NCBI GenBank assembly: GCA_049297775.1
Contig: JBAQUX010000023.1
Span: 18 to 64,017 of the forward strand
Reading direction: 5' to 3'
From: Minisyncoccia bacterium
GTDB lineage: Bacteria > Patescibacteriota > Minisyncoccia > Phycocordibacterales > UBA2100
Length of the DNA stretch: 64,000 bases
Within the stretch, counting starts at the first letter, position 1; every line of letters starts with the position of its first letter. The position numbers and the translations under genes were made by a program. Shown one piece after another: positions 1,584 through 27,780 of this stretch. The notes beneath the pieces are model-generated. The model saw only the letters and a list, made by a program, of their open reading frames with translations. It had not been told where the DNA came from and did not search any database.

Positions 1584-1588
1584 GATAT

Positions 1589-2656: not shown

Positions 2657-2724
2657 ATGGTAACTATACGTGATGCGCGAGTGAGTGACAATCAACTGCT
2701 CTGCATAAGTCTCAGTGATAATTT

Positions 2725-3114
2725 CTATTTTTGCCAGCCAAGCACCACTTGCTCAATTTTACTCACCATCTCATCTGGGAGTGACTGCGCCTTAATGAAC
2801 TGTCCCGCGACTTTTAAGTCTTTCATTCGAGCAAAATCTTCTGGCTCACTTTGGTTAGAGAGCACAATTATTGGAAGCCCTTCCGCAAGGTGTTCATCTC
2901 GAAGCGTTTTGATGAACTCAAATCCATTCATCTGAGGCATAATTATATCAGCGACTATTATATCTACTCTGAGTCCACCTCGTAATTTTTCTAACGCAAC
3001 CTTAGCGCTCTGACATGGAACCACCACATGCCCTCTCTCAAGGATTTTTGTTGCATAAATATCAACAATGAATTCATCGTCATCGAGAAACAGTATAGTA
3101 AATTTTTTATCCAT
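2725..3114 (-). CDS. Single-domain response regulator (REC/CheY-like receiver only)
   Basis: 129 aa. Acidic pocket LFLDDDE, phospho-acceptor Asp in IIVADIIMP, conserved T/S and K positions of receiver domains. No output domain. Embedded between pilB and pilT. Confidence 0.8.
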   Translation of the reverse strand: MDKKFTILFLDDDEFIVDIYATKILERGHVVVPCQSAKVALEKLRGGLRVDIIVADIIMPQMNGFEFIKTLRDEHLAEGLPIIVLSNQSEPEDFARMKDLKVAGQFIKAQSLPDEMVSKIEQVVLGWQK

Positions 3115-3115
3115 A

Positions 3116-4888: not shown

Positions 4889-4891
4889 GGC

Positions 4892-5290
4892 TTACTCGGA
4901 GATTTCTTCTTGTGCTCCAGTGCGTGCGCCACGACCTTGAAATTGTACTGGTATTTCCTCAGAAATTATATCGTCATCGTTACCTACAGGGGCAAAAGGA
5001 TTTTTTCGTCCCACCGGCTCAGGAATAATTTGTTGCCCTGTATCTTTAAGCACATTAAACGCTGGATTTTGAAAAATAGTGTCATCTAGCTTAATTGTAC
5101 GCATATCCAATAGTAACTTGAGCACCTCAGAGTCATCATTATTTTCAGTAACTACCTGGCTATTAAGTACGCCATCTGCAGACGATGTACCGAGAGTGGC
5201 ATTTTCTTCTCCGGAATTCATCGAAAGACCATACCAACCTCCGATGATGACAACGATTACTATGACTGCAATTATTATTTTATTGTTCAT
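4892..5290 (-). CDS. Small single-pass membrane protein, PilP-like pilus-assembly accessory (hypothetical)
   Basis: 132 aa, N-terminal TM helix (IIIAVIVIVVIIGGWYGL), acidic C-terminus. Position between pilO and pilB. Assignment by context only. Confidence 0.4.
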   Translation of the reverse strand: MNNKIIIAVIVIVVIIGGWYGLSMNSGEENATLGTSSADGVLNSQVVTENNDDSEVLKLLLDMRTIKLDDTIFQNPAFNVLKDTGQQIIPEPVGRKNPFAPVGNDDDIISEEIPVQFQGRGARTGAQEEISE

Positions 5291-5301
5291 GGTTCAATAT
5301 A

Positions 5302-5958
5302 TTATGGAAGCCAGTATGTTCGTATCGCAACAGTAAATCTATATATTGGGTCTGTGGTATCGCGTGAACCACTTGTTGAAATACTTTGACCCTGAAGTCC
5401 GACGAGCTCTTGCGGAATTGCACCTCCTGCAGGAGCCTGTTTTGCAGTTTCAGACATAGATAATGATACAAGGTCTACAACTCGCAAACTCTGCTCGAGG
5501 TCACGCATAAAACTCACAAAATCGTCATATGTTGATGCCACGCCAAATTCAAGCACCAAGGATTTATATCGCTGGTTTTGTAATGCTGACGCTGCTTCAA
5601 TAGAGCCTGCGACTTGCGTTTTCCCCTTCTCGTCGCCATCTCTACGCACCTGCACGTTTCCAATGCGCAATCCATGCTTGGTCGCAAGCGCATCAAAATC
5701 GAGCACTAAGTGCACGTTATCTACGAAGTCTGGGAGAAATTTTTCAAGACGTTCAGTGTTTGTACCAGTAAGCGTATTATATTTTTGTGAGAGTGCATTA
5801 CCAAGCGCCTGCACTTCTTTTGCCTTAGCTAGACCTTCAGCATATTTGTCCACCTCTTTCTTTTTTGAAAGTGTAGCGTTATATGTAGGCGTTACATATC
5901 CAAAGATAAGACCGCCAGAGACAAGTATCATTATTATTGCAAGTATAAGTTTAGTCAT
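5302..5958 (-). CDS. pilO: Pilus assembly protein PilO-like
   Basis: 218 aa. Short cytoplasmic N-terminus, one TM helix, coiled-coil then periplasmic/extracellular domain. Gene order pilM-N-O. Confidence 0.6.
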   Translation of the reverse strand: MTKLILAIIMILVSGGLIFGYVTPTYNATLSKKKEVDKYAEGLAKAKEVQALGNALSQKYNTLTGTNTERLEKFLPDFVDNVHLVLDFDALATKHGLRIGNVQVRRDGDEKGKTQVAGSIEAASALQNQRYKSLVLEFGVASTYDDFVSFMRDLEQSLRVVDLVSLSMSETAKQAPAGGAIPQELVGLQGQSISTSGSRDTTDPIYRFTVAIRTYWLP

Positions 5959-5971
5959 AATGGTACATTAA

Positions 5972-6787
5972 TTATTCGCTGGTGTTTCCAAATAATCCAT
6001 CTGATGCCGGCTTTCCTGTTTGCGGTTTAGGTAACGGACGAGGTGTTGGCGTGGTTTGTTGTTGCACACCGCCTGCAGGCCTTCGGTTCAAATTTCCTGT
6101 AACGTCCTGGGGAGCTTCTTCTTCAGTGAAAGAACTTTGTGTTGCACTTGTATCATCTAGGGATTCTTCACTTCCTCCATTTTGAGCACTAAGTGCCGCG
6201 GCGACAAGTGATTCAAATTTTACTGTTTCTGGATTTAAATTTAAATTAACTGCGAACGTAACTCCTTGCGCACCGATATCCAAATCTGAGAAAATTGGCT
6301 CTTTAATAGCGTTATGCCTACTAAAAATTGACGCCTGGAGTGCAATACCGTTTACACTCGCTGCCTTCCCTTTCATTTCAACATGCAGGTCGCCTTCTGG
6401 TTTTACCGTATAGTTCACGTTGGTAAATTGTACTGACTTAAGTGTTGTCTGTTCGAGGACCTTAAAAAATATTGAAGGTGCAAGGTGAGCACCAAGTACG
6501 CCGTTTGCAGAACGGATACGCTCGTCGAGTCTCATTATTTTTGTGACGAGTGAAGGTGCAAACGCTCCGCGCGCCTTTTCGAGTTGCGCCTTTTTATCAG
6601 CCAAGTCCTTTGTAACAAACTGTTGATAGAGAAAAACTCCCGCTGAAAGCGTCCCCGCAATCACGAGGGCGATTATTCCCAAAAGCATGACCACGTCAAA
6701 TCCATCACTTCCTCCGTAGTTGCTTTGAGGAGACTCCATTGTAGGGAGTTTTGTGGGGATGAATGATGATTGAATTGGTGATTCCAT
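5972..6787 (-). CDS. pilN: Pilus assembly protein PilN-like with Pro/Thr/Gln-rich C-terminal tail
   Basis: 271 aa, single TM (VVMLLGIIALVIAGTLSAGVFLY) followed by coiled coil. Low-complexity C-terminus QQQTTPTPRPLPKPQTGKP. Immediately downstream of pilM. Confidence 0.6.
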   Translation of the reverse strand: MESPIQSSFIPTKLPTMESPQSNYGGSDGFDVVMLLGIIALVIAGTLSAGVFLYQQFVTKDLADKKAQLEKARGAFAPSLVTKIMRLDERIRSANGVLGAHLAPSIFFKVLEQTTLKSVQFTNVNYTVKPEGDLHVEMKGKAASVNGIALQASIFSRHNAIKEPIFSDLDIGAQGVTFAVNLNLNPETVKFESLVAAALSAQNGGSEESLDDTSATQSSFTEEEAPQDVTGNLNRRPAGGVQQQTTPTPRPLPKPQTGKPASDGLFGNTSE

Positions 6788-6810
6788 ACGTTTTAATTAT
6801 TCCACATAAT

Positions 6811-7971
6811 TTATCCCTGCTGGATAATGCGCATCGCTGCACCTACCGCAACTGAAAATTCTGGGCCTACTTCTTTAAGTACATCGTGCAAAAATGCTGG
6901 ACCTTCTACGTGATCAAATGGCTGAGCCAATTGGACCTGGGCACCAAGTCTTTCTTGCGCATACGGAATTAAGTCTTTGATAGTCGCACCTCCTCCTGTC
7001 AAAATAACATGAGGTACATTTTTCTGATACTTTTTCCCGTAGTTCAATAATACTTTATGTACCTCTGGGAATATACGTCCGAGTGTTGATAACAATGCGG
7101 TGCGCACTGGAGGCGTCGGCATTGCTGTTCCGGTTCCTGCTTCTTTAGTCATCGGCACGTCAATGCTCAGCCCCTGCTCCTTCTTCATTCGCTCAGCTTT
7201 TTCAAAATCCCAACTCATCGATCTACTAATCGAAAGGGTCATATCTTGGCCACCTTGATTGATGGTATGCGACATGCGTACGATACCTCGCTCAATAATA
7301 GATACTTTTGTTGTTGAGGCACCGATGTCTACAACCATGATTGGTGCAACTCCGTGCCCCAAAGAAGATCGCGCAGTACTGAATATTTCAAGTTCATAAA
7401 ACTGTGGCTGAATATTAAGCCCTTGCATAATTGACTGAAAATTACTGAGTGTGTCGTTATGTATCGCAACGAGTAAAACCTCAATGACATCCTTCTTTCG
7501 CTCTCCCGTATCAGGCTGTGTCGCATTTTCATATTCATCTTTTGGAATAGCAAACCAATCAAGGGAAATTTCATTCATAGGAACTGGAATGTACTTACGA
7601 GCCTCAAGAGGTACGGCACGTTTGAGCGCATCATCGCTCATAGGTGGCAATTCAATAACCGAAGTCAGGCTTGCTGAGAACGGAATAGCGACTCCGGCTA
7701 TAGTAGCCGTCATGTTTGATTCTTTCATGAGGTCCTGAATTGCTTCTCCTATTTTTTGTGCAGGAAGTCGTGCCACTTGCCCAGTCTGCAACTCAGCAAA
7801 TGGACCAAGGGCAATTGCGCCATATGTCTCAAGTATTGCACGACCGTGTTCTCTGCGTAATTGAACAATTTTTACTGAAGATGATCCAATATCTATACCA
7901 AGCACACTCCCAGTACCACCGATGGAAGGCAGTCCACTGAGTCTTTTTGTAATTGCATCAAATAAACCCAT
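6811..7971 (-). CDS. pilM: Type IV pilus assembly ATPase-fold protein PilM (actin-like)
   Basis: N-terminal GIDIGSSSVKIVQL actin/FtsA-like phosphate-1 motif and second half with DIGASTTKVSI. Start taken at MGLFDAITKRL (7971); the ORF track extends to 8025 through non-conserved residues. Confidence 0.85.
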   Translation of the reverse strand: MGLFDAITKRLSGLPSIGGTGSVLGIDIGSSSVKIVQLRREHGRAILETYGAIALGPFAELQTGQVARLPAQKIGEAIQDLMKESNMTATIAGVAIPFSASLTSVIELPPMSDDALKRAVPLEARKYIPVPMNEISLDWFAIPKDEYENATQPDTGERKKDVIEVLLVAIHNDTLSNFQSIMQGLNIQPQFYELEIFSTARSSLGHGVAPIMVVDIGASTTKVSIIERGIVRMSHTINQGGQDMTLSISRSMSWDFEKAERMKKEQGLSIDVPMTKEAGTGTAMPTPPVRTALLSTLGRIFPEVHKVLLNYGKKYQKNVPHVILTGGGATIKDLIPYAQERLGAQVQLAQPFDHVEGPAFLHDVLKEVGPEFSVAVGAAMRIIQQG

Positions 7972-8019
7972 ATAGTAGATGCATTGTACCATACTCACCT
8001 GTAGAATGTTGAGTACACT

Positions 8020-8664
8020 ATGCACTTTTTACGCAAATATATAGCGAGTTTTATCGACTGTGTACTGCCCCCAAGAGAGGCTGAGCTTCAACTGCGTAAA
8101 CTCACACCAAATAACTTTCCATTCATAAAAAGTGAATTCAAAACTGAGAGTGGCATGAGCGTGCTTACACTCTCTGTATTCACCGATGAGCGCGTTCGGC
8201 TCGCTATTCATGAATTAAAATTTCATAAAAATTCTCACGCTGCATCGCTGTACAGCGAAAATGTACATGACGCGCTACAAGAAGTATGCTCAAGAAGTAA
8301 CTTAGAGTATTTAATTGTCCCCATACCTCTTCATAAAAAGAGGTACCGCGCTCGCGGATACAATCAGGTAGTGACTATTATCATGTCTGCGCATTCCAAG
8401 GGTACGGAGCATCCGCTCAACACAATTTTCTCAGCAGACGCACTTACTCGCATTCGCGAAACAAAACCCCAAACAGAACTATCACGCGAGTCTCGTTTAA
8501 AAAATCTACATCACGCCTTTTCCGCTTCGTCTGAAGTGCGTGATAGAAATGTCATTGTTGTTGATGACGTGTACACGACCGGTGCTACATGTGCAGAGGC
8601 ACAGCGAGCACTCATGTACGCAGGAGCACGCAGTGTCACCTGTATTGTTTTGGCAAGGGCTTGA
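8020..8664 (+). CDS. comFC: ComF family protein (ComFC-like phosphoribosyltransferase-fold competence protein)
   Basis: C-terminal PRTase motif VIVVDDVYTTGAT typical of ComF/GntX. Divergent from the pil operon. The real start may be an internal Met (e.g. MSVLTLS at 8155) to leave room for divergent promoters. Confidence 0.75.
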   Translation: MHFLRKYIASFIDCVLPPREAELQLRKLTPNNFPFIKSEFKTESGMSVLTLSVFTDERVRLAIHELKFHKNSHAASLYSENVHDALQEVCSRSNLEYLIVPIPLHKKRYRARGYNQVVTIIMSAHSKGTEHPLNTIFSADALTRIRETKPQTELSRESRLKNLHHAFSASSEVRDRNVIVVDDVYTTGATCAEAQRALMYAGARSVTCIVLARA

Positions 8665-8753: not shown

Positions 8754-9242
8754 TTGGTACCCCGATTGAAAATCGCAGTACACCATATACTTATGAACCC
8801 AGTGCATCCATATCGTCGCGTAGCCCTCATACTTCTTGGAGGATTTTTCCTTTGGGGTGCAGTATCTTATTACTGGTATGCCTGTGGCATCAAAAACCTC
8901 TGCAGTACACAGCAGGTTACGATTACTCAAGCCACTCATGAGGTTGCAAAAATTCCAGATGATATACATGTAACCCAGGTACTCGTCTACGAAAAGAACG
9001 AGTGTGCACCGTACCTTACTGGCTCAGTAGGTGTAGCAACTCGAAACAACCCTGCCGACGTGTCCCTCGTTGAACAATTTTTATCTGTATACCAGAACGA
9101 AAATATTGTTATTGATGGTGTGTATACCAGTGATGATATTGCGGGAATTCGCAGGTTTCAAAATGCGCAAGGCATTTCAGCGACTGGTAATGTATTCAAT
9201 AAAACACGTGAGGCAATAAATGCATTAGTGTGTGCCGAATAA
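8754..9242 (+). CDS. Membrane-anchored protein with C-terminal PG_binding_1 (peptidoglycan-binding) domain; cassette copy 1, gene A
   Basis: N-terminal TM helix followed by SYYWYACGIKNLC motif, shared with the 21586 paralog. C-terminal LVEQFLSV...DGVYTSDDIAGIRRFQNAQGISATGNV matches the PG_binding_1 consensus. Probable start at MNPVHPY (8793). Confidence 0.7.
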   Translation: MVPRLKIAVHHILMNPVHPYRRVALILLGGFFLWGAVSYYWYACGIKNLCSTQQVTITQATHEVAKIPDDIHVTQVLVYEKNECAPYLTGSVGVATRNNPADVSLVEQFLSVYQNENIVIDGVYTSDDIAGIRRFQNAQGISATGNVFNKTREAINALVCAE

Positions 9243-9270: not shown

Positions 9271-9723
9271 ATGTTTACTCAACCAGTAACCCAAGCTTAC
9301 GACCTCACCGACGCCACGTGGGAAATAATTGTAATGCTTACTGTCTCTTTTTTGCTCGGTTGGTTTTTTCGATATCTTTGGTCTCGTACAGATGCTGAAC
9401 AACAGATAGTTTACGTTCCCCAGACACCCGCTGTTCCAGACAGACCTGAACGTTATAGAAAATATTCAGAAAATGATTTACAAATCGTAGAAGGTATTGG
9501 TCCAAAAATTGAAGAACTTTTAAAGACTAATGGTGTATATTCATGGGAAGATTTAGCACGTTCGTCAATTGAGAGTCTCCGTGCCATTCTCCAAAAAGGA
9601 GGTGAGCGCTTCCAAATGCATGACCCGAGTAGCTGGGCTGACCAAGCAGCACTTGCTGTTGAAGGAAAATGGGCGGATTTAGAAGAATATCAAACCCTAC
9701 TTCCCGGCGGACGGATGCGATAA
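9271..9723 (+). CDS. Membrane-anchored helix-hairpin-helix (GIGPK) domain protein, ComEA-like candidate; cassette copy 1, gene B
   Basis: TM helix (IIVMLTVSFLLGWFF) then DLQIVEGIGPKIEELLKTNGVYSWEDLA HhH motif and conserved FQMHD...WA.QA.LA..GKW tail. Paralog of 22254-22718. Confidence 0.65.
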   Translation: MFTQPVTQAYDLTDATWEIIVMLTVSFLLGWFFRYLWSRTDAEQQIVYVPQTPAVPDRPERYRKYSENDLQIVEGIGPKIEELLKTNGVYSWEDLARSSIESLRAILQKGGERFQMHDPSSWADQAALAVEGKWADLEEYQTLLPGGRMR

Positions 9724-9727
9724 CAAT

Positions 9728-9753
9728 AAGGCGCCCTATGGCGCCTTTTGTAA
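9728..9753 (+). terminator. Rho-independent terminator (AAGGCGCC-CTAT-GGCGCCTT + TTTG)
   Basis: 8-bp GC-rich stem, 4-nt loop, U-rich tail directly after the stop of the 9271-9723 gene. Confidence 0.6.
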
Positions 9754-9771: not shown

Positions 9772-10566
9772 TTACTGTACGGTAATTGTTTTTTGTGACA
9801 CAACTGGCGCCTGAGATACATACCCGCGAATAGTTCTAAAACTCACGGTGTAACTGCCTCGTGATTGATATATGTGTGTAAGTTGTCTATTTATCTGATC
9901 TGACTCACAACCACTATTACCGCCCTCCCGAGATACTATTGGTGAACCATCTCCCCAATCAAGCGAATACGATGTGCAGGTAGTCCCATTTACAGCAAAA
10001 AACGCAGACACCGCATGTGGTGCAGGACCACTTGCAGGTTCGACAGTGAACGAAAAGTTATCTACGGGCGCCACTCCAGTCTTTACCGGAGTACGTGTGG
10101 TTGTTCCTGTACTTGTAGTCTTCGCTTGGGTTACCGAAGTTCCTGACGCACATGCAGCCTTCATAACATCGGCTGTACGTTTATCAATAGAACCTGTAAC
10201 AGATAGGTGTGACAAAAGTTGCCAACGCGAAACTGCATCTTTAGTAATACCTCCATAATATCCAGTACCATACTCATCTGACAAAACGCCTTGTTCAATT
10301 AGAAATCCTTGAAGTGCGATCACATCTTGCCCTGATGCGCCCACTTGTAACGAACGATTCACTGGCAAGCACTCCCCGCTTCCAGTGGTTCCGGTGTTCG
10401 TTCCATCAGGATCAATACCAATTGCTCGGAGTTGCACTTTTATAGCATCGACGATTTTGATAAGCCGAGCAATTTCAGAAAGTATTTCATCTCGTGTCAT
10501 CGCTGAGGTCATAGCGGGCACAACAACAAGCACTGTAATAATAAGGGCTGAAAGTGATTTATACAT
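9772..10566 (-). CDS. Secreted protein: signal peptide + PG_binding_1 domain + C-terminal PKD-like domain
   Basis: N-terminal signal/TM. IALQGFLIEQGVL...GTGYYGGITKDAVSRWQ is a PG_binding_1 motif. C-terminal LDWGDGS...HIY...GSYTV matches the PKD motif (WDFGDG...HxY...GxYxV). Confidence 0.7.
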   Translation of the reverse strand: MYKSLSALIITVLVVVPAMTSAMTRDEILSEIARLIKIVDAIKVQLRAIGIDPDGTNTGTTGSGECLPVNRSLQVGASGQDVIALQGFLIEQGVLSDEYGTGYYGGITKDAVSRWQLLSHLSVTGSIDKRTADVMKAACASGTSVTQAKTTSTGTTTRTPVKTGVAPVDNFSFTVEPASGPAPHAVSAFFAVNGTTCTSYSLDWGDGSPIVSREGGNSGCESDQINRQLTHIYQSRGSYTVSFRTIRGYVSQAPVVSQKTITVQ

Positions 10567-10614: not shown

Positions 10615-11634
10615 TTACCGCACAGTAATCTGCGCCTGATTAATAACTGGTAACTTTGAAAGTACATTTTGTCCCTGTTTCAGCGTAACGGTATAGATGC
10701 CAGGCCTTGTGTACACATGCGGAATATAGAGCGTAATTGCTTTTGCCGTACACGTAGCAGGCTTCCCAGCATCAAATGCTTCAGGTGCTGTGCCATCTCC
10801 CCAACTAATTTCGTATGAAGTACACGTAGTACCATTCACCGCAAACGAAAGGCCAATCGTAAGTGGTGCACTTCCCGACGCAGGCTTTATAAAGAATGAG
10901 TACCGTTCTGATTTTCGCTCTGACCCCGCATTCGCGCCACCACATTTTGCAATCCTGTCTCGCGTCGCACCATTTGTGGTACCACTTTGCGTCAGACCCT
11001 TTGTTCGTTGCCATGACAGCAAAGCTCGCTCAGTTGATGGACCGAACGCTCCTGTAATAAGTGAGGTGCTTAACGTGCCTTCACGAGCAAGGAAACATTG
11101 AAGCGTTGCAACATCTCCGAGTACCCCTTGCGCATCAACTGACCCGCGGGCAATAACATTTGCGATAACTGGGCAATCAGGGACATTTGTGCACGAAACT
11201 AATTTACGTGGAATGATTGGCTCACAGCTTTGATTTTTATTTATATAGGCACGTGTCTTTTCCTCAACAATGCCATATCCAGTTTTACACGATAACCCGG
11301 GCTTTACGATGTTAAACTTTTTTTGTAGTCGCCGCACCGCAAGCTCAGTTTCTTCACTATATTCACCCGTAACTAAACCACTAGGATATAGTGAGGGAAA
11401 ATCACGCAAGTATTTTTGTAACCGAGTTACCTCACCATTTGTAGTACTGTCACTCACACCAAAATAGAGAAGCTCCTTGAAAGCGGGACATTTAGTTTTG
11501 GCATCTTCTGTTGTTGCTGTCTCCTCACCTTTCATTTCAGTTGATTTTCCAGTAACAGGAGCGACTCGTGTTTGCGCAGACACCGTCTGACCGAGAAGCA
11601 CGCATATACATACCGCAAAAAGTATTCGAATCAT
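10615..11634 (-). CDS. Secreted protein: two PG_binding_1 repeats + C-terminal PKD-like domain (paralog of 9772-10566)
   Basis: Signal peptide MIRILFAVCICVLLGQTVSA. LQKYLRDFPSLYPSGLVTGEYSEETELAVRRLQ and VATLQCFLAREGTL...GAFGPSTERALLSWQ motifs. C-terminal ISWGDGTAPE...HVYTRPGIYTVTL PKD signature. Confidence 0.7.
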   Translation of the reverse strand: MIRILFAVCICVLLGQTVSAQTRVAPVTGKSTEMKGEETATTEDAKTKCPAFKELLYFGVSDSTTNGEVTRLQKYLRDFPSLYPSGLVTGEYSEETELAVRRLQKKFNIVKPGLSCKTGYGIVEEKTRAYINKNQSCEPIIPRKLVSCTNVPDCPVIANVIARGSVDAQGVLGDVATLQCFLAREGTLSTSLITGAFGPSTERALLSWQRTKGLTQSGTTNGATRDRIAKCGGANAGSERKSERYSFFIKPASGSAPLTIGLSFAVNGTTCTSYEISWGDGTAPEAFDAGKPATCTAKAITLYIPHVYTRPGIYTVTLKQGQNVLSKLPVINQAQITVR

Positions 11635-11691
11635 GAAGTAAGTATCGCATGCATTAGTACGCAATCAATTACCACACTGTTTATAATAGGA

Positions 11692-17508: not shown

Positions 17509-18090
17509 TCACAGCTTGGTGCTGTCATATGCCCAATGCAGTAATGCTTGGCGTTGACGAGGCCGACAGTGCAAATCCCCCACACTGCAGGCACCATGCA
17601 ACCACACAATATGTCGGGCCATTTTCCGCCAACGCTCAATTTGTCGTGCGTCATCTTCGTGCCGACGACCCATATAATATCTACAGTACCATTGAAACCA
17701 CCCTCGTGGATCATCTGGGTGTATCCATCCTTTACGTACCCACTCCTCACGAGACTGACTCGCATCAACTTGAAAATAGTTGAGTAATTCATCATACCCA
17801 CGGCCAAACCGGATATGGTCTCGTTTGCTATTTGCCTTTTCCCCTAGGAAGCGAGGTTCAAAAATACTGAGTAGTATTTTTGCATTCTTGAACCATTCTT
17901 GTGGGTACTCATCGATACAGCCTTCAAAATAATTACCTCCGAAAACCCCCATCTCAAGCATCATCTGTGGAGTAAGTTGTGGTTTGAAGCTTGGAGAGAA
18001 ATGTGTTCCTTCTTGCGAAACAAGTTCATATGTATAGCCTGGCTGTAATAAATCACTCGAATATACGTTGCGCATATATGCAGTATACAC
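17509..18090 (-). CDS. Hypothetical protein (Trp/Arg-rich conserved core)
   Basis: 193 aa. Conserved-looking block GWIHPDDPRGWFQWYCRYYMGRRHEDDARQIERWRKMARH. Family not recognised. Confidence 0.4.
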   Translation of the reverse strand: MYTAYMRNVYSSDLLQPGYTYELVSQEGTHFSPSFKPQLTPQMMLEMGVFGGNYFEGCIDEYPQEWFKNAKILLSIFEPRFLGEKANSKRDHIRFGRGYDELLNYFQVDASQSREEWVRKGWIHPDDPRGWFQWYCRYYMGRRHEDDARQIERWRKMARHIVWLHGACSVGDLHCRPRQRQALLHWAYDSTKL

Positions 18091-18156: not shown

Positions 18157-18852
18157 ATGCGTGAATATAAACCAAGTATCCTCCGAGCAGAACGGACTCG
18201 TAATTCACTCCCAGAAACATCTGTGCCGTTATATCAATTCAACGGCGATGAACCTATCGATTTTAAAGACGTGCCCGGACTTGCGGCGAAGGCCCGCGAA
18301 TATATGCGCCTGCGCTCAATAATCAGCAAGGATAGAGCAAAACATTATCGTAGTAAAACAAAAACGTCTGTGGAAGCACAGCGCCTTTCTGAACTCGACA
18401 GAGAGTTAACAAGGTATTTTTCTCGACGTGCACAACTTCGTCATAAAAGTATTCTCTCAGCTTCAATACGCCGAGAAAACGGTATTGATAGTGGGGGTGA
18501 CGTACGCGTACTCTCCTACGGTCACCCCGACTCATGGCTGGCACAGCACTGGGTATGCAAATATTCTCACAAAAGAAATATCACTGGTCCTGAAGTTGAA
18601 TACTTGCAGAAAAAATATGCAGTGCTCAGATTACTCATGAAGGAGCATATCCCCGAAGCGGTAGTTATCTGGGGTGAATATCGTGGAGGTACATTTAATA
18701 AGGATGACCCTTTTAAGCCTCTCCCACTTCAGCGTCGCGCCATTACGTTGCAACGACGAATTCATGGGAAAACAATGAAGGATATGACGCCAGACGAGCG
18801 GAGACGACCTGAGGTACGTGATGCTCTGAAAAAAGCGCTGCAGTATACATAG
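18157..18852 (+). CDS. Hypothetical protein
   Basis: 231 aa, basic, no recognised motif. Good coding periodicity and RBS-compatible context. Confidence 0.4.
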   Translation: MREYKPSILRAERTRNSLPETSVPLYQFNGDEPIDFKDVPGLAAKAREYMRLRSIISKDRAKHYRSKTKTSVEAQRLSELDRELTRYFSRRAQLRHKSILSASIRRENGIDSGGDVRVLSYGHPDSWLAQHWVCKYSHKRNITGPEVEYLQKKYAVLRLLMKEHIPEAVVIWGEYRGGTFNKDDPFKPLPLQRRAITLQRRIHGKTMKDMTPDERRRPEVRDALKKALQYT

Positions 18853-18866
18853 ACGCCGCAAGTACG

Positions 18867-19103
18867 TTGGACAAAGTTGCACTCTTGCGGGATAAAATGC
18901 CAGGGACATTAAAGCTCGGCCTAGATATAGGACTTTCATCAGACTCTCAAGATGCTATAAAAAATGCAAACCTAAACGAGCTTACCTCGCCAAACCTTAT
19001 GTATGACGATAAAACTCAAACGATTTATTTTATTGACCTTGGAGAAGGGTTCTGGGATACAGGCATGGAAGCGATATACACAGAACTGCAGCGCACGCAC
19101 TAA
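18867..19103 (+). CDS. Small hypothetical protein
   Basis: 78 aa ORF 14 nt after the previous gene, probably co-transcribed. 4-nt convergent overlap with the purA-like stop. Confidence 0.3.
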   Translation: MDKVALLRDKMPGTLKLGLDIGLSSDSQDAIKNANLNELTSPNLMYDDKTQTIYFIDLGEGFWDTGMEAIYTELQRTH

Positions 19104-20104
19104 ATCGCGTCTTTCTTGTGTGAGAAGAAGATATTTTTTGACTTTACTCCCAAGGAGACAAACTTTGTGCGCAAATATTTCTGCATTTCTTTTCCATTTT
19201 TAAATGTACGTATCTTTTTTCCTTCTCTAATTTTCCATGCTCCTACGGCGTCAAGCACATCTGTTTTATTGAGCACGAGATGTGTTACTCCATTCACCGC
19301 AATCGCAGTTTCTAACATATCGAGCGACAACCAATTGCATTGACGCGGCCGGCCTGTCGTAGCGCCAAATTCTTCTCCAGCCTCACGAATCTTCTTGAAA
19401 ATTTCCTCATTTGGTTCAAAGTCCTTATTTCCTACGTAAGTCTCGTATACCTTCACGACTCCCCATACATTTCGAAGCGACTGTGGTGCGATACCGTTTA
19501 GAAGTGCCCCTGCACTCGTACAATGACTTGAAGTAACGTACGGATAATCCCCCCAATCAATATCGAGTCCGAAACCTTGTGCACCCTCACCAAGAATCAC
19601 TGGGCTTTTTTTGCTTTTTTGAAACTCTGTGTGCAAATTTATAAGATATGGCGCAAGTGCAGGAACATCTTTGGCGCGCGTTCCGACGCGCGCATACTTG
19701 TCTCGGTATGTAGGGCCGATACCACGCTTTGTGGTTCCGATTTTTTTATCGCCACCGTCCTCATCTTTATGCTTTTGCATCACCACATGAGAGTTGTCTG
19801 CAACAAATACAAGGCCTTTCGTTTTGATGCCACCAGCATGGAGCATAGCGAGCTCCTCTTTGAGACCTTCTGGGTCAACGACGCACCCCGATCCAATAAT
19901 CGACTTGATACCAAAAAATACACCCACTGGAATTTGATGCGTAACGAACTTTACCCCCTTATGGTATATGGTATGCCCCGCATTGCTACCACCGTTGTAA
20001 CGGAGCACATGGGTATACTTTTTGTCCTTGCATAAAAAATGGGCTACCTTGCCCTTGCCCGAATCTCCGAACTGTAAATCAACAATGACATCAAGTGTAA
20101 CCAT
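19100..20104 (-). CDS. purA: Adenylosuccinate synthetase, short (archaeal-type, ~334 aa) form
   Basis: P-loop QFGDSGKGKV (GDEGKGK), NGGSNAGHTI (QGGNNAGHT), IGTTKRGIGPTY (GTTKKGIGP), C-terminal GATTGRPRQCNWLSLD (TGRKRRCGWLD). Confidence 0.8.
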   Translation of the reverse strand: MVTLDVIVDLQFGDSGKGKVAHFLCKDKKYTHVLRYNGGSNAGHTIYHKGVKFVTHQIPVGVFFGIKSIIGSGCVVDPEGLKEELAMLHAGGIKTKGLVFVADNSHVVMQKHKDEDGGDKKIGTTKRGIGPTYRDKYARVGTRAKDVPALAPYLINLHTEFQKSKKSPVILGEGAQGFGLDIDWGDYPYVTSSHCTSAGALLNGIAPQSLRNVWGVVKVYETYVGNKDFEPNEEIFKKIREAGEEFGATTGRPRQCNWLSLDMLETAIAVNGVTHLVLNKTDVLDAVGAWKIREGKKIRTFKNGKEMQKYLRTKFVSLGVKSKNIFFSHKKDAI

Positions 20105-20388: not shown

Positions 20389-21414
20389 ATGACATCATCT
20401 TTTGCATCGAGAGCGACAGTGGCAACACTCAGTGTTCTCGGTATGACACTCTTTGCATTGCTCAGCACTGCCCCATATGCTTTTGCTGAAGATGGTGGCG
20501 GGAGCACACTTGGAAACGGACCCATCGCAGGTACTGTTATATATATGCCAGAAAATATCTATACTGGTTCAGGACTTATTCCACTTGGAAACGGTGGCGC
20601 CGCAGGTACGAGCAGTGTTGGTTTGGGAGGTGCAGCATGCGCACCATATATTCAGTCCTTCAACTCTATTGGCGATCGCGGTGAATCAGTAATTGCACTT
20701 CAGAGATTTCTTAATCAATATGAAGGTGCAGGACTTCCTCTTACTGGATATTTTGGTACTCGTACTGAATCAGCAGTGAAACATTTCCAAGCACGCTATG
20801 ACATCAGACCTACTGGAAGACAGCTTATACTCACCACGACAAAGATAAATGAGCTCGTCTGCCAATTTGGAGGACATGGTGTCGGAAAACCACCAGTACA
20901 AAAAAGTACGGCACTCTGCCCTGCATACCTCGCCATGACTACGACACCGACAGTGCACAGTGCTGAAGTCGCGAAATTGCAGCTTTTCTTAAACGTATAC
21001 GTCAATGCGAAAATACCACTCACTGGATTTTACGGACCTCAAACTAAAGACGCAGTATTGTTCTTTGAGACCGGCCACAAACTTCCTTCCCCTGACGGAC
21101 GCATCGATGTAGATACAGTAAAAAAAATTAATGACCTGTACTGTGCATACGGTGGTAAAACAGTAACGGCAGTTCCTAAAATAGTTTCTGTTAAACAAGT
21201 AGTGATCACGCCTGTGTCTACAGCCGTACCTACTGTTTCAATAACTCAAAACACTGTAGCGTCTGACACATCGTCACAGACCGCAGGAGTAGTACTTGGT
21301 GATGCTGTAGAAAACACAGCACCGACACCTGCACCATTTAAGCGACCAGCCGTAATCGTTGGTATCCTCGCTGCACTACTTGCTGCTGGATTCGCCTTTC
21401 GTAAGACTGCATAG
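20389..21414 (+). CDS. Secreted/anchored protein with two PG_binding_1 domains and C-terminal hydrophobic anchor
   Basis: Signal peptide MTSSFASRATVATLSVLGMTLFALLSTAPYAFA. IALQRFLNQYEGAGLPLTGYFGTRTESAVKHFQ and VAKLQLFLNVYVNAKIPLTGFYGPQTKDAVLFFE motifs. C-terminal AVIVGILAALLAAGFAFRKTA hydrophobic anchor (sortase-like/TM). Confidence 0.65.
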   Translation: MTSSFASRATVATLSVLGMTLFALLSTAPYAFAEDGGGSTLGNGPIAGTVIYMPENIYTGSGLIPLGNGGAAGTSSVGLGGAACAPYIQSFNSIGDRGESVIALQRFLNQYEGAGLPLTGYFGTRTESAVKHFQARYDIRPTGRQLILTTTKINELVCQFGGHGVGKPPVQKSTALCPAYLAMTTTPTVHSAEVAKLQLFLNVYVNAKIPLTGFYGPQTKDAVLFFETGHKLPSPDGRIDVDTVKKINDLYCAYGGKTVTAVPKIVSVKQVVITPVSTAVPTVSITQNTVASDTSSQTAGVVLGDAVENTAPTPAPFKRPAVIVGILAALLAAGFAFRKTA

Positions 21415-21585: not shown

Positions 21586-22230
21586 TTGATACATAACAAT
21601 ATATACATGCAATTATTATCACATCTCTCACAGAAGCAGTGGTCTCTACTCGGTATCCTCGGTCTTTGGCTCGTGTTCGGCTCATATTGGTACACCTGTA
21701 ACATTAAGTACCTCTGCAAAAATACACCCATCGCCCCTGTGGTATCAGTTAACACATCAGTACCTAACATGCCAGTTGTACTTGGTGATACTACTTCTAC
21801 AGAAGTTAGCGGAACACCAGCGGAAAGTTTAGTACGTCAAACGCCAGAAGCTACATGGAACGCATTGATTGCTAACCCAGTACTTGTGTACTTTGGTGTC
21901 AATAATGACAATGTTATTACTGAGAACGTAGATTCTGTCTTAAAGAATATTGTAAGCTATCTCTCTCAAAACGAGGGTCAACGTATCGTTGTGACAGGAC
22001 ACACAAATGCGCACCCAAATGACGCATACGCAGTTGCACTTGGTCTCGAACGCGCACATAAAGTAAAGGAGCTTCTTGTCTCCTACGGTGCCCCTGCTTC
22101 AGCAATTCTTGTCGCTTCACTTGGCGATACGCAACTCGCTGCGCCTGCAACAACACTGGCAAATCAAGCACTTAACCGACGTGCGGTTATTTCTGTTGCT
22201 CGTCCTGACGCATACGATATCAAATACTAA
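21586..22230 (+). CDS. Membrane-anchored protein with C-terminal OmpA-like peptidoglycan-binding domain; cassette copy 2, gene A
   Basis: N-terminal TM + SYWYTCNIKYLC motif, homologous to SYYWYACGIKNLC in the 8754 gene. C-terminal OmpA_C-like motif VVTGHTNAHPNDAYAVALGLERAHKVKELLVSYGAPASAILVASLGDT...NRRAVISV. Probable start MQLLSHL (21607). Confidence 0.7.
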   Translation: MIHNNIYMQLLSHLSQKQWSLLGILGLWLVFGSYWYTCNIKYLCKNTPIAPVVSVNTSVPNMPVVLGDTTSTEVSGTPAESLVRQTPEATWNALIANPVLVYFGVNNDNVITENVDSVLKNIVSYLSQNEGQRIVVTGHTNAHPNDAYAVALGLERAHKVKELLVSYGAPASAILVASLGDTQLAAPATTLANQALNRRAVISVARPDAYDIKY

Positions 22231-22253
22231 ATTATAGATTAAACACACCTACC

Positions 22254-22718
22254 ATGTTCCAAGTTCTAAACCCAATGACAAAAAGCACAGCAATTCTTGA
22301 AATACTCATACTTATGGGTATCTCAGCACTACTCGGATACCTCCTTGCACGAAGCTGTAAGGACAACTGTTGCTGTGGCACCTCATGTGACGCAACAGCA
22401 AAGGCGAAGCCTGCTACCCCATCAGTACCGAAGGCAGTGATGTCAGCTCCGGTAGTATCTGCTTCAGATGACTTAAAAAAGATTGAGGGCATCGGACCAG
22501 CGATTGAAAAACTTCTCAACGCAGAAGGTATAAAAACATTTGCACAGCTCGCAGATGCAAAAGTTGAAAAAATTAAAAATATACTTGACGCCGCAGGACC
22601 GCAATTCCAAATGCACGACGGAGAGACTTGGGCTGAACAAGCTCGCCTCGCACGCGACGGAAAGTGGGTTGAGTTTAAGGCTCTTACTGACAAACTCCAG
22701 AACGGCAAGCACGTCTAA
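22254..22718 (+). CDS. Membrane-anchored HhH (GIGPA) domain protein with Cys-rich juxtamembrane segment, ComEA-like candidate; cassette copy 2, gene B
   Basis: TM (AILEILILMGISALLGYLLA), CKDNCCCGTSCD cluster, then DDLKKIEGIGPAIEKLLNAEGIKTFAQLA...QFQMHDGETWAEQARLARDGKW. Same domain as 9271-9723. Confidence 0.65.
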   Translation: MFQVLNPMTKSTAILEILILMGISALLGYLLARSCKDNCCCGTSCDATAKAKPATPSVPKAVMSAPVVSASDDLKKIEGIGPAIEKLLNAEGIKTFAQLADAKVEKIKNILDAAGPQFQMHDGETWAEQARLARDGKWVEFKALTDKLQNGKHV

Positions 22719-22743: not shown

Positions 22744-22786
22744 GTACTACACCCTCTACTCGCACACCGAGTAGAGGGTGTAGTAC
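22744..22786. repeat. Perfect 19-bp inverted repeat (GTACTACACCCTCTACTCG / CGAGTAGAGGGTGTAGTAC) with 5-nt loop
   Basis: Arms 22744-22762 and 22768-22786 are exact reverse complements. Lies between the 22254 gene stop and the ATG of the phosphoesterase gene (22796). No U-tract follows. Confidence 0.5.
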
Positions 22787-25485: not shown

Positions 25486-27687
25486 TTACTTACCGTTTAT
25501 CACTCGATAGAAACCATGTGCAGCTGATGCTGTCTGTTGCATGATGCTTTCAGTACCGGACAAGAGACCGACTACACGGTGCCAGAGGTATGCCGAGGTG
25601 TCCTCGTCAACAACAATATTCTTTGTAGTTGAAAGAGTCTGCGCAATATCACTTCTTCCAGAAGTAAGTTTGAGCGTGAAATTACCCACGGTTGTATATG
25701 AGTGTGAGAATGATTTCTCAACCAAGCTAGACGTGTGAGTGGTACCACACGCAGGAAGTGTCACACTGTGCGTAGTTGGCGCAGTACTGTCTCCCCAGTC
25801 AATGGTATAAGTTGCTGTAGCTGCAGCGGATGCAGAACATGATTGATCTGCCTTGAAGCTTGCTGTTGCTGTCATCGGCTTAAAACCAAATGTTGGGCTT
25901 ACCGTAAGTGTTGGCGCTCCAAGATTTACACCACTTGTTGCGTCATAACTATATGTACCATTACTTGCACGGTATTTTACGGTGCGTGAACCAGAGTCAG
26001 TATATACGTGTGTCAACACTTGCTGAGTAATTGTTTGTCCAAGTGGGATATCATTTACACAACGTGTCGGTGTAAATTCATATACAGATGTCTCTGACGC
26101 GTCGCCCCAATCAACGGTATAGCGTCGTGAGTTAGCATTACCAAGAGAACAGCTTGTATCCACATCAAATGTAGCTTTTGCAGTCGCAGGTGCATATGCG
26201 CCGTCGCGAGGAATGACTGCAAATTTTGGTGTATCTACAGTAATTTGAGCTGAGCCCACATTCTGAACTGCGCCTGATGGTCGCAATTCAACTGTGTAAT
26301 TCCCTGTTTTTGTATACGTATGAGGTATGTCGCGAACAGTTGAACGTGTTTCCCCGATAGGAATATGGATGGTGTATTTTTGTGAGTTATCTCCAAAATC
26401 TACTTCAAAGTTTGATGCTGTTGATGTTGGTGCGATTTCTGTGTGGATGTTAACGGCGAGTGGGGCGATACCACGAGTATTTGAGACAGTAATTGGTGTG
26501 CCACCTGATGTACCGAGCTGAGTCACCGCAAAATTACCTGACTCCGTTACCAATACAACACTTGCACGCTTGTCATCTGCTCCACAGAAGTCGATACAGC
26601 CGTCGGCTGGCGTGTACATTGCTGCACGAATTTTGTAACTTCCTGTAGGCATTTGTACTGAACAGGTGTTACCGTCACAGACACCATCACCTACTATCCA
26701 ATCAAACTCACTCGAACGCATACTTCGCTTCGCGAATGAGTATGTTTGTGTCGGACCAACAACATAAAACGCTATAGCTGAATCTGTTGGGTAGTTACCA
26801 GTAGTCCATTTAATTTTTGTTAAATCACCAAGGCGAACAGAGCTACCTGCGGATGGAGAATCCATACGAAGATACGGCTCACCTTTTGCAATTTGTATTG
26901 AGCGAGTCAACAACTTAGGTAAACCACTGCGAGGTCCCTTTCCTGCTTTAAGTGTTGCAATGTATGTTCCTGCACTTGTATATGTATGTTGGAGTGTTCT
27001 CTCTGAAATTCCTGAGCCACACACCGTTGATTGTGGAGCCTCGAAAACTGTTGGATCTGTTTTATCTCCCCAATCTACTTCATATGACACACATGCCGTA
27101 TCTAAGGTAGAAAGCTTTATACGCGCGTCATATGGTGCTGTACCAGATGATTGGTCAAAGGCAAAGTTAACTACTTGTGCAGCAGAAGTTCCTGTTCCCG
27201 TTCCCGTTCCCGTTCCCGTTCCTACAGTACTTGTACCAGTATCACCGCTACATGCAGAAGCAAGTACCAGTCGTGTACGTGTACCTACAAGTCCGTAACC
27301 TGTGGTGTCCGCAGTCCCCGCAACGGCAATACCGTGACGCTCCTGAAAACGTTGCACCGCGCGCTCTGTCGCAAAACCAAAAAATCCTGAAGCGGTTCCC
27401 TCTGGATAAATATTTGCATCTCGTGCCAAATACGATTGCAGTGCCAAAACATCTGAACCTTTTGATCCACGGCGAAGCATGCGAGTAATCTTTGGACAGC
27501 CACTGACTGATCCTGAACCAACATCTGTTGTGCCCAATTGCGCCTTAAGACTGTTAATTTGATTCAGGACACTTTTAAGCTGATTTTGTAAATCCGTCGC
27601 TGTATCTGCTGTAGCAAATGGAACAGTGCCGGTGAGGACAGTAACACACAATGTAAGCGCTATTAAAAAACGGGTACTACGGTTCAT
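25486..27687 (-). CDS. Large secreted protein: signal peptide, PG_binding_1 domain, (Gly-Thr)n linker and multiple PKD-like repeats
   Basis: Start at MNRSTRFLIALTLCVTVLTG (27687). VLALQSYLARDANIYPEGTASGFFGFATERAVQRFQ PG-binding motif, then GTGTGTGTGTGTGTS linker. Repeated xxDWGD...H.Y...G.YT blocks: YEVDWGDKTDP, FEVDFGDNSQ, YTVDWGDASE, YTIDWGDSTA. Confidence 0.7.
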   Translation of the reverse strand: MNRSTRFLIALTLCVTVLTGTVPFATADTATDLQNQLKSVLNQINSLKAQLGTTDVGSGSVSGCPKITRMLRRGSKGSDVLALQSYLARDANIYPEGTASGFFGFATERAVQRFQERHGIAVAGTADTTGYGLVGTRTRLVLASACSGDTGTSTVGTGTGTGTGTGTSAAQVVNFAFDQSSGTAPYDARIKLSTLDTACVSYEVDWGDKTDPTVFEAPQSTVCGSGISERTLQHTYTSAGTYIATLKAGKGPRSGLPKLLTRSIQIAKGEPYLRMDSPSAGSSVRLGDLTKIKWTTGNYPTDSAIAFYVVGPTQTYSFAKRSMRSSEFDWIVGDGVCDGNTCSVQMPTGSYKIRAAMYTPADGCIDFCGADDKRASVVLVTESGNFAVTQLGTSGGTPITVSNTRGIAPLAVNIHTEIAPTSTASNFEVDFGDNSQKYTIHIPIGETRSTVRDIPHTYTKTGNYTVELRPSGAVQNVGSAQITVDTPKFAVIPRDGAYAPATAKATFDVDTSCSLGNANSRRYTVDWGDASETSVYEFTPTRCVNDIPLGQTITQQVLTHVYTDSGSRTVKYRASNGTYSYDATSGVNLGAPTLTVSPTFGFKPMTATASFKADQSCSASAAATATYTIDWGDSTAPTTHSVTLPACGTTHTSSLVEKSFSHSYTTVGNFTLKLTSGRSDIAQTLSTTKNIVVDEDTSAYLWHRVVGLLSGTESIMQQTASAAHGFYRVINGK
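27191..27222. repeat. Hexanucleotide microsatellite (CCCGTT)x5 inside CDS, encoding (Gly-Thr)n on the minus strand
   Basis: cctgtt cccgtt cccgtt cccgtt cccgtt cc. The in-frame 6-nt unit corresponds to the GTGTGT linker of the 25486-27687 protein. Confidence 0.8.
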
Positions 27688-27780
27688 ATATATGTATTGT
27701 ATACCCTGCATAGAAAAAAGTGGAGTTTCGTGTGCACAGTAGTCCGTTTCTCTCGCAAGGCTCTCAAGCCTAAGCAAATA

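Follow-up and report, generated by a model that had tools for sequence, protein, structure and literature searches.

A conserved two-gene module, pairing a predicted wall-binding membrane protein with a helix-hairpin-helix membrane protein, occurs twice in a Minisyncoccia genome fragment

Organization of the Locus

We analyzed a two-gene cassette in a 64,000-nt stretch of Minisyncoccia bacterium contig JBAQUX010000023.1 (hereafter the window, meaning the whole 64-kb stretch; coordinates refer to it unless another locus is named). The first gene (gene A) encodes a protein with an OmpA-type domain, a predicted peptidoglycan binder, and the second (gene B) a protein with a helix-hairpin-helix (HhH) domain; each has one transmembrane (TM) helix. 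Both products have public models that are 100% identical: P0001, annotated as 'OmpA family protein [Minisyncoccia bacterium]' with 207 aa from the ATG, and P0015 for gene B. The source of these models is a Minisyncoccia metagenome-assembled genome (MAG) of the class Minisyncoccia, phylum Minisyncoccota, a lineage of the Candidate Phyla Radiation (CPR). The initial annotation had described the locus as a second, diverged copy of a peptidoglycan-anchor plus HhH cassette, here with an OmpA-type anchor. Our results confirm this description by the 33% identity of the two B proteins, by a shared motif and by the pairing of both genes in many other genomes. The features of this cassette (copy 2) are as follows.

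21607 to 22230, + strand: gene A of copy 2, 207 aa from ATG; the open reading frame (ORF) opens at TTG 21586
21640 to 21717, + strand: TM helix (about W12-T30) and motif of gene A, ending in YWYTCNIKYLC (21685-21717)
21907 to 22179, + strand: OmpA_C domain of gene A (Pfam PF00691, 54.2 bits)
22254 to 22718, + strand: gene B of copy 2, 154 aa, starting 23 nt after gene A
22290 to 22349, + strand: TM helix of gene B (A13-A32), with Glu16 at the predicted outer end and the invariant Leu and Gly28
22356 to 22388, + strand: Cys patch of gene B (C35, C39, C40, C41, C45)
22467 to 22694, + strand: (HhH)2-like domain of gene B (residues 72-147; Pfam HHH_5; model pLDDT, the predicted local distance difference test, >90)

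Gene A Joins a Membrane Helix and an Invariant Motif to an OmpA Domain

In the protein encoded by gene A, one TM helix and a motif next to the membrane are followed by a linker rich in Pro and Thr and by an OmpA_C domain. The motif, W-x3-S-x-YWYxCxIKxxC, is invariant: alignment of orthologues showed no variation at its two Cys residues (C31 and C37) or at the Ile-Lys, and the close orthologues of the copy 2 protein (A2) retain the form W-x3-(L/A)S-T-YWY-x-C-x-IKG-x-C. The C-x5-C pair would lie outside the membrane in the topology proposed below and could form a disulfide. No acidic residue was found in the TM helix of A, either in the window or in 80 relatives. A lipoprotein signal or a cleaved signal peptide was rejected as an explanation of the A N-terminus, because conservation of the hydrophobic segment extends to its individual positions, the segment covaries with B, and natural fusions keep it. 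No lipobox (L-[AS]-[GA]-C) was detected in either protein; the first Cys is preceded by W-Y-T in A and by A-R-S in B.

The OmpA domain was recognized by Pfam PF00691 at E 1.9e-14, with 54.2 bits vs. a gathering score of 27.2, over residues 108-198 in the numbering from TTG. The best NCBIfam models were OmpA_C lipoproteins of the Pal, YiaD and PA1041 type, which matched at the level of the domain and below the family cut-offs; curated thresholds were not reached for Pal (56 of 125 bits), YiaD (53 of 175) or MotB (24 of 250). The domain had been called canonical, which it is not in full: it reads GHTN instead of G(H/Y)TD. In characterized OmpA-like domains the Asp and Arg of G(H/Y)TD...RA make the contact to the stem peptide of peptidoglycan. 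At this place (window 21985-22060), GHTN(A/V)H is found in gene A and in its close CPR orthologues and G(H/Y)TD in 111 other family members, and the Arg of 'ERA' is retained in gene A. A further form, GHTC(D/N), was seen in 11 relatives (Bacteroidota loci and unplaced cluster representatives). A stem peptide of different chemistry in these organisms may lie behind the GHTN and GHTC variants.

Gene B Carries a Membrane Helix and a Compact HhH Domain

Gene B encodes a short N-terminal tail, one TM helix, the Cys patch, a disordered linker and a compact C-terminal (HhH)2-like domain of the COG3743/HHH_5 type. The consensus of the helix, derived from 39 relatives and 64 proteins encoded next to a motif-bearing A protein, is (E)-I-I-L-M-L-L-V-A-F-I-L-G-Y-L-L. 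Its Leu and Gly are present in 64/64 partners and its N-terminal Glu in 48/64, and G28 is likewise invariant in the alignment of gene B relatives.

Pfam HHH_5 (PF14520) matched residues 72-110 with 28.8 bits, just over the gathering score of 27. The AlphaFold2 model, built from a 39-sequence alignment, had a mean pLDDT of 81 and comprised a helix at residues 7-38, disorder at 42-65 and a compact five-helix domain at 72-147 with pLDDT >90. Signatures of the domain are an invariant E-G-I-G-P hairpin and a W-x2-QA-x-LA-x-DG-x-W segment. Foldseek returned weak matches (best E 0.3), all of them to (HhH)2 modules: NusA AR2 as the best, the RadA N-terminal domain, the thumb of Y-family polymerases and PolQ/Hel308. 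Some sources label relatives of B as 'flap endonuclease-1-like 5' DNA nuclease'. We rejected this label; no nuclease model of Pfam or NCBIfam matched gene B, which beyond the TM helix holds only the HhH domain of ~80 residues, and FEN-1 was not among the 50 listed fold matches.

Homologues of the domain numbered 276, including fusions to ribosomal and other proteins. The same domain is appended to L21, L27, L17, S16, S2, NuoE, CBM48 proteins, the phasin PhaH and RC-LH1 protein-O; in Bacteroidota it is fused to L27, L21 and L17. The NCBIfam models of the L21, NuoE and S2 extensions matched the B domain at 1e-11 to 9e-8, and protein-O of Dinoroseobacter shibae (PDB 8yy9_O) at E 3.8e-6. The latter protein starts with a TM hairpin that has both ends in the cytoplasm and runs through a long flexible loop into a C-terminal domain that was called functionally obscure (PMC12079452).

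The cluster of Cys residues noted in the initial annotation indeed lies immediately past the TM helix of gene B, but comprises five Cys within 11 residues (SCKDNCCCGTSC) and not six within 12. It is not conserved in orthologues: those of CPR bacteria have 0-8 Cys after the helix at variable spacing, followed by a linker rich in Pro and Ala, there are none in copy 1, and Bacteroidota B proteins have a heptad-rich, probably coiled-coil linker where copy 2 has the Cys patch. Judged from these alignments, the patch is a clade-specific variable feature and not a defining site of the system. It possibly acts as a clade-specific stand-in for the coiled coil, with a putative structural or oligomerizing role, perhaps via a metal.

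A Diverged Paralogue of the Cassette Lies in the Same Window

A tblastn search of both copy 2 proteins against the window recovered copy 1.

8793 to 9242, + strand: gene A of copy 1 (A1), 149 aa, ORF opening at 8754; YWYACGIKNLC at 8871-8903; PG_binding_1 replaces OmpA
9271 to 9723, + strand: gene B of copy 1 (B1), 150 aa, no Cys patch

The two B proteins are 33% identical over their full length (E 4e-29), and A and A1 can be aligned only over the TM helix and the motif (13/24 identical). The linker after the helix of B1 is neither a Cys patch nor a coiled coil. Searched in six frames, the 64-kb window contains exactly two occurrences of [YFW]W[YF]xCxIKxxC, both at the N-termini of A genes.

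Both cassette types were also found ~20 kb apart on contig CAYNND010000004.1, with the same neighbours as in the window (L098 24001-32000; L102/L001 1-12800). This contig belongs to a MAG labelled Saccharibacteria, whose RecG and PilM are 69% and 72% identical to the window proteins. The shared neighbours indicate that the paralogues are old, predating the split of these species, and that both are maintained.

The A-B Pair Is a Conserved Module

To follow the pair across genomes, we back-translated YWYxCxIKxxC into a DNA pattern and scanned one genome per GTDB species, which gave at least 119 loci; by our own estimate, ~26 matches in 596 Gb are expected by chance. The counts given here for 80 motif proteins and 64 pairs are among the matches listed. 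In these 80 matches the motif lies 12-45 residues from the ORF start, right after a hydrophobic stretch; the remaining matches come from unrelated taxa and are without a TM helix. One to three OmpA domains are present in 72/80 motif proteins, and for 64/80 a same-strand HhH ORF was located -93 to +143 nt downstream. The other 16 include nine with no HhH ORF in the fetched stretch and at least three whose A gene ends at the edge of the stretch. According to record titles, the 80 comprise 67 Bacteroidota (Flavobacteriales, Saprospiraceae/Lewinellaceae, Chitinophagales, Cytophagales and Bacteroidales), six CPR bacteria, three Chlorobiota-labelled bins and four Proteobacteria or Myxococcota.

Several positions outside the search pattern are conserved as well (W-6 in 79/80, F-9 in 58/80, S-2 in 60/80 and V+3 in 65/80). 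With a 42-position N-terminal profile, HMMER was run exhaustively against 1.84 billion cluster representatives and gave 161 hits at E <=1e-3, the best at 6e-16, almost always at residues 1-45; a word-indexed homology search with a 44-column profile yielded eight candidates, none of them scored. The N-terminal likeness of the two A proteins thus goes beyond generic TM composition, given the linkage of the motif to gene B, the conservation of positions that the pattern did not impose and the 161 profile hits. Among the best 150 of the 161 representatives, Pfam detected OmpA in 82, PG_binding_1 in 24, and PG_binding_3 in one; 11 have TSP3 repeats, and some two dozen of the remainder are fragments of <100 aa. 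As far as these domain assignments go, the predicted wall-binding domain is exchangeable (OmpA, PG_binding_1 or PG_binding_3). The occurrence of three unrelated peptidoglycan-binding folds behind one N-terminal module argues that the C-terminal part contributes wall binding.

Linkage was also seen from the side of B, as P0020, P0043 and P0099 each directly follow an OmpA gene with the motif or a variant such as STYWHTCKIKELC. No other neighbour family recurs in more than six of the 64 loci, and the context of these loci offered no functional hint; thus, the unit is the pair itself. The same pattern in viral contigs gave chance hits only, with no TM helix, OmpA or HhH, which shows that the module is not phage-borne.

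We define the module as an A protein with an N-terminal TM helix, W-x3-S-x-YWYxCxIKxxC and a wall-binding domain, followed immediately downstream on the same strand by a B protein whose TM helix reads (E)-x4-L-x6-G and which carries a COG3743 domain; both copies in the window have this form. One Cytophagales genome (L137 1510-3480) has a single A gene followed by two tandem B paralogues of 153 and 159 aa. Neither N-terminal module has a model in Pfam or NCBIfam, and literature searches (COG3743, DUF4332, ribosomal-protein extensions, product names) found no paper on the pair.

Natural Fusions, Charge Bias and Covariation Suggest a Probable Topology and Possible Contact

In P0177 and two variants (P0284 and P0285), found on four contigs, both proteins are joined in one ORF with the order TM-WQWYTCSIKGLC-PG_binding_1-(B N-terminus)-TM-linker-HhH and no internal stop in code 11. 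This order should place the wall-binding and HhH domains on opposite sides of the membrane. The complete fusion is located as follows.

L136 1608 to 3020: complete A (PG_binding_1) plus complete B; the first ~177 residues look like an over-extended start

In other variants (P0072, P0074, P0086 and P0108) an A-type 'ATYWY' helix is joined to a whole B, and in Dyadobacter an A-type protein has an additional helix resembling that of B. One gene of the A-TM/B kind (L004 5607-6573) stands immediately after the gene for ribosomal protein L27.

The orientation of B is suggested by its charges. Lys and Arg average 0.56 in the 15 residues before the B helix vs. 3.28 in the 15 residues after it, and the second value exceeds the first in 61/64 proteins; by the positive-inside rule, B is therefore predicted to be N-out/C-in. 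Fusion of the same HhH domain to the cytoplasmic proteins L21, L27, L17, S16 and NuoE fits this placement. As the wall-binding domain of A must be outside, A is predicted to be N-in/C-out, with its motif at the outer surface.

We also observed covariation between the partners. In all 12 pairs with an Arg just before YWY in A, the B protein lacks the canonical Glu and has 'DS' three residues upstream, and this Arg occurs in 0/48 pairs whose B has the Glu. The covarying positions of A and B would both be at the outer ends of their helices. The pattern is consistent with A-B contact, and is not proof of it.

Stem-Loops and Genomic Surroundings

A stem-loop stands right after gene B in both copies of the window.

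22744 to 22786, + strand: inverted repeat after copy 2, a 19-bp perfect stem with a 5-nt loop, 26 nt past the B stop and 10 nt before the next gene
9728 to 9751, + strand: intrinsic-terminator-like hairpin directly after gene B of copy 1, AAGGCGCC-CUAU-GGCGCCUU followed by U's

The 19-bp perfect repeat had been reported in the initial annotation, and its 19-nt arms (22744-22762 and 22768-22786) are indeed 100% complementary. As RNA, the hairpin has a folding energy of -38.1 kcal/mol (z = -8.3), and 0/200 shuffled sequences folded as well. The arm sequence has no second occurrence in the window, no canonical T tract is present and a simple terminator scan did not call the hairpin. It is probably the 3' end of a bicistronic transcript. 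A simple promoter scan gave no convincing promoter upstream of gene A.

The gene preceding copy 2 encodes a double PG_binding_1 protein, as had been described, with two PG_binding_1 stretches at E 5.9e-21 (Pfam). It is not a conserved neighbour of the pair. Secreted or anchored PG_binding_1 proteins flank both cassettes (9772-10566, 10615-11664, 25486-27777 on the - strand and 20389-21414 on the + strand), and three of the four also have PKD domains; these neighbours recur in CAYNND010000004.1 and are absent from the wider family. RecG is encoded downstream of copy 2. Copy 1 lies directly next to a type IV pilus cluster (372-8664, - strand) with a divergent ComF-family gene, and these surroundings are kept in close relatives only (two related genomes).

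372 to 1583, - strand: ORF in the pilus cluster region
1589 to 2695, - strand: PilT-like ATPase
2725 to 3114, - strand: response regulator
3116 to 4888, - strand: PilB-like protein (MshEN and T2SSE)
5302 to 5958, - strand: PilO-like protein
6811 to 8025, - strand: PilM
8020 to 8664, + strand: ComFC/GntX, adjoining copy 1
20389 to 21414, + strand: double PG_binding_1 protein, upstream of copy 2

Two further ORFs of the pilus cluster (4892-5290 and 5972-6787) had no Pfam match. Elsewhere in the window, ORFs of 193 and 231 aa (17509-18090, - strand, and 18157-18852, + strand) matched neither Pfam nor NCBIfam. A 334-aa adenylosuccinate synthetase homologue (19100-20104, - strand) matches the 416-position Pfam model in two stretches and appears to be a shortened form.

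A Proposed Wall-to-Cytoplasm Link

Domain content, gene linkage, natural fusions, charge bias and partner covariation were observed directly. From these we infer the physical pairing of the helices, the topology, wall binding and the ligand, and propose the following model. A and B would assemble, one TM helix against the other, into a small two-subunit membrane complex. Subunit A would be oriented N-in/C-out, with its helix ending at the outer surface in the YWYxCxIKxxC motif and its exoplasmic domain (OmpA_C in copy 2, PG_binding_1 in copy 1) binding peptidoglycan. Subunit B would be oriented N-out/C-in, with the conserved Glu at the outer end of its helix beside the motif of A; on the cytoplasmic side, a flexible or coiled-coil linker would tether its compact (HhH)2-like domain. 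The complex would form a fixed link from the cell wall through the membrane to the ligand of the HhH domain, and the genome would keep two paralogous complexes with different wall-binding chemistry. We consider this two-subunit architecture fairly probable.

Several observations weigh against the model as drawn. The charge bias flanking the A helix is ambiguous, and the evidence for A-B contact is indirect, coming from fusions, charge bias and covariation; the last of these is confounded with lineage and may be a single evolutionary event. AlphaFold2 modelling of a natural A-TM/B fusion from a 4-sequence alignment gave no usable packing; at a pLDDT of 49.8, the model shows two helices and a domain. 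A singleton from JGI (P0256, 121 aa) lacks the second TM helix, and its A-type N-terminus (STHWYICRIKELC) runs straight into the HhH domain; this protein, perhaps a true variant and perhaps an artefact of deletion, conflicts with the placement of the two domains on opposite sides. In the predicted wall binder of copy 2 the pocket Asp is replaced by Asn, and wall binding by copy 2 is therefore an assumption. Disulfides in the Cys patch are unlikely, because the proposed topology places it in the reducing cytoplasm. Finally, the fold matches of the HhH domain are weak (E 0.3 at best), and its mild acidity (mean net charge -1.5; -6 in copy 1) fits protein docking at least as well as DNA binding.

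As to the ligand, the invariant E-G-I-G-P hairpin favours binding to a nucleic-acid backbone, and our first guess, at well under an even chance, is that it would be nucleoid DNA bound without sequence specificity. Mild acidity and the likeness to NusA AR2 favour protein docking, and a protein or ribonucleoprotein partner is nearly as likely as a nucleic acid. A bolder and rather doubtful extension is that the pair would be an unrecognized envelope-to-cytoplasm tether, present in Bacteroidota, CPR bacteria and a few bins labelled Chlorobiota, Proteobacteria or Myxococcota, that pins the nucleoid, or else ribosomes or other carriers of COG3743, to fixed points of the sacculus.

Alternative Explanations

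The alternative that survives best retains the architecture and regards the HhH domain as a protein-docking module, by which B recruits, or is recruited by, a cytoplasmic machine at wall-anchored sites. The machine could be the ribosome, a complex of respiration or photosynthesis, or something else that carries the domain. Besides the mild acidity, the best fold match points this way, as NusA AR2 is a protein-binding (HhH)2 domain. The same domain is carried on linkers by many unrelated machines (L21, L27, L17, S16, S2, NuoE, CBM48, PhaH and protein-O), much like an address tag, and the A-TM/B fusion gene of L004 directly follows the L27 gene. However, the domain has the invariant G-I-G hairpin, which is typical of HhH motifs contacting the phosphate backbone and is lost in the acidic repeats of NusA. 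Also, no partner gene is conserved beside the pair at the 64 loci, and the 64-kb window holds no carrier of the domain besides the two B genes. We regard docking as a serious possibility, though one well short of an even chance.

It is improbable that B is a ComEA-like, outward-facing DNA receptor of a type IV pilus or competence machinery, held at the wall by A. ComEA is, like B, a membrane-anchored (HhH)2 protein; copy 1 adjoins ComFC and is divergent from a PilM/PilO/PilB/PilT operon, with synteny in two related genomes, and RecG lies downstream of copy 2. Yet the positive-inside bias places the C-terminus of B in the cytoplasm in 61/64 cases, the full fusion sets the HhH domain opposite the PG_binding_1 domain, and the domain is otherwise found on cytoplasmic proteins. 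Moreover, no ComEA or HHH_3 model of Pfam or NCBIfam matched, and L042, L053, copy 2 and the Bacteroidota loci all lack the pilus/ComFC surroundings.

We give an equally low chance to the idea that the pair conducts ions, generates force or signals as a minimal unit like MotAB, TolQR or ZorAB, in which A would be a MotB-like plug and the Glu of B would be protonatable. The layout of A is that of MotB (short N-terminal tail, single TM helix, linker, OmpA_C), and A has domain-level hits to the MotB, MotD and ZorB models, although the MotB-type scores are far under the family cut-offs. B contributes a conserved acidic residue in its TM helix, but this Glu would be at the outer end of the helix and not in mid-membrane, and the helix of A has no acidic residue. 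The cytoplasmic coiled coil of Bacteroidota B proteins is reminiscent of the tail of ZorA; still, B has one helix and no match to MotA_ExbB or ZorA models, and no multi-pass partner of the MotA/ExbB/TolQ/ZorA type accompanies the pair or recurs in the 64 loci.

The idea that there is no system at all, with two unrelated membrane-protein genes side by side and a likeness to copy 1 due to generic hydrophobicity, might appeal to the alignment of A and A1 over 24 residues only, but is refuted for practical purposes by a motif-only search that recovers the two-gene arrangement in 64/80 cases across phyla, by viral contigs with only chance pattern hits, by profile E-values down to 6e-16 at nearly always N-terminal positions and by the existence of natural A-B fusions.

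Significance of the Pair

The domains of the pair are familiar, namely OmpA_C or PG_binding_1 anchors and HhH, while their conserved pairing is captured neither by Pfam or NCBIfam nor by the literature we found. Dedicated TM helices and the invariant juxtamembrane Cys-x-Ile-Lys-x-x-Cys motif belong to this pairing, as does a wall binder that can be exchanged. Because genetics is possible in some Bacteroidota, where the module is common, a function could be worked out in that phylum and then carried over to the uncultured CPR bacteria. The pair further provides a handle on the COG3743 domain, the role of which was called obscure in the only structural paper found (PMC12079452). If the bolder tether extension described above is true, this domain would be a general cytoplasmic address module, and the membrane pair its wall-anchored receptor or counterpart. 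The maintenance of two paralogues with different predicted wall-binding chemistry suggests that attaching something cytoplasmic to the wall matters in very small CPR cells.

Comparison With Known Systems

The pair is neither ComEA nor a MotAB-type stator. A resembles MotB/PomB, ZorB and the logic of TolR-Pal in its short cytoplasmic tail, single TM helix, flexible linker and OmpA_C domain. It differs from MotB/PomB/ZorB in that its helix has no Asp and its partner B is single-pass with a cytoplasmic HhH domain, in place of MotA, ExbB or ZorA. PADLOC, which covers Zorya and other defence systems, returned only a weak hit of the A OmpA domain to ZorB (E 6e-6) and none for B, A1 or B1. Lipoproteins of the Pal/YiaD/PA1041 type are the best-scoring models for the OmpA domain, but A has no lipobox and keeps its conserved TM helix. 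ComEA is similar to B as a small membrane-anchored protein with an (HhH)2 domain; however, it belongs to another HhH family, has the opposite orientation to that predicted for B and needs no wall-anchored partner.

The C-terminal domain of B is shared with RC-LH1 protein-O (8yy9 chain O) and with the extensions of NuoE, L21, L27 and L17 (COG3743, 'FEN-1-like H3TH'). Protein-O is similar to B also in having a membrane anchor, a long flexible linker and a cytoplasmic domain (PMC12079452), but it has its own two-helix hairpin, resides within a photosynthetic complex and has no wall-binding partner. In functional logic, the pair also resembles bitopic proteins.

FimV/HubP and RodZ link the wall or periplasmic side to a cytoplasmic binding module within single polypeptides (LysM and TPR in the former, an XRE-type HTH in the latter). 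The A-B pair would be a split version of such a link, in which the two halves are fused only in rare variants.

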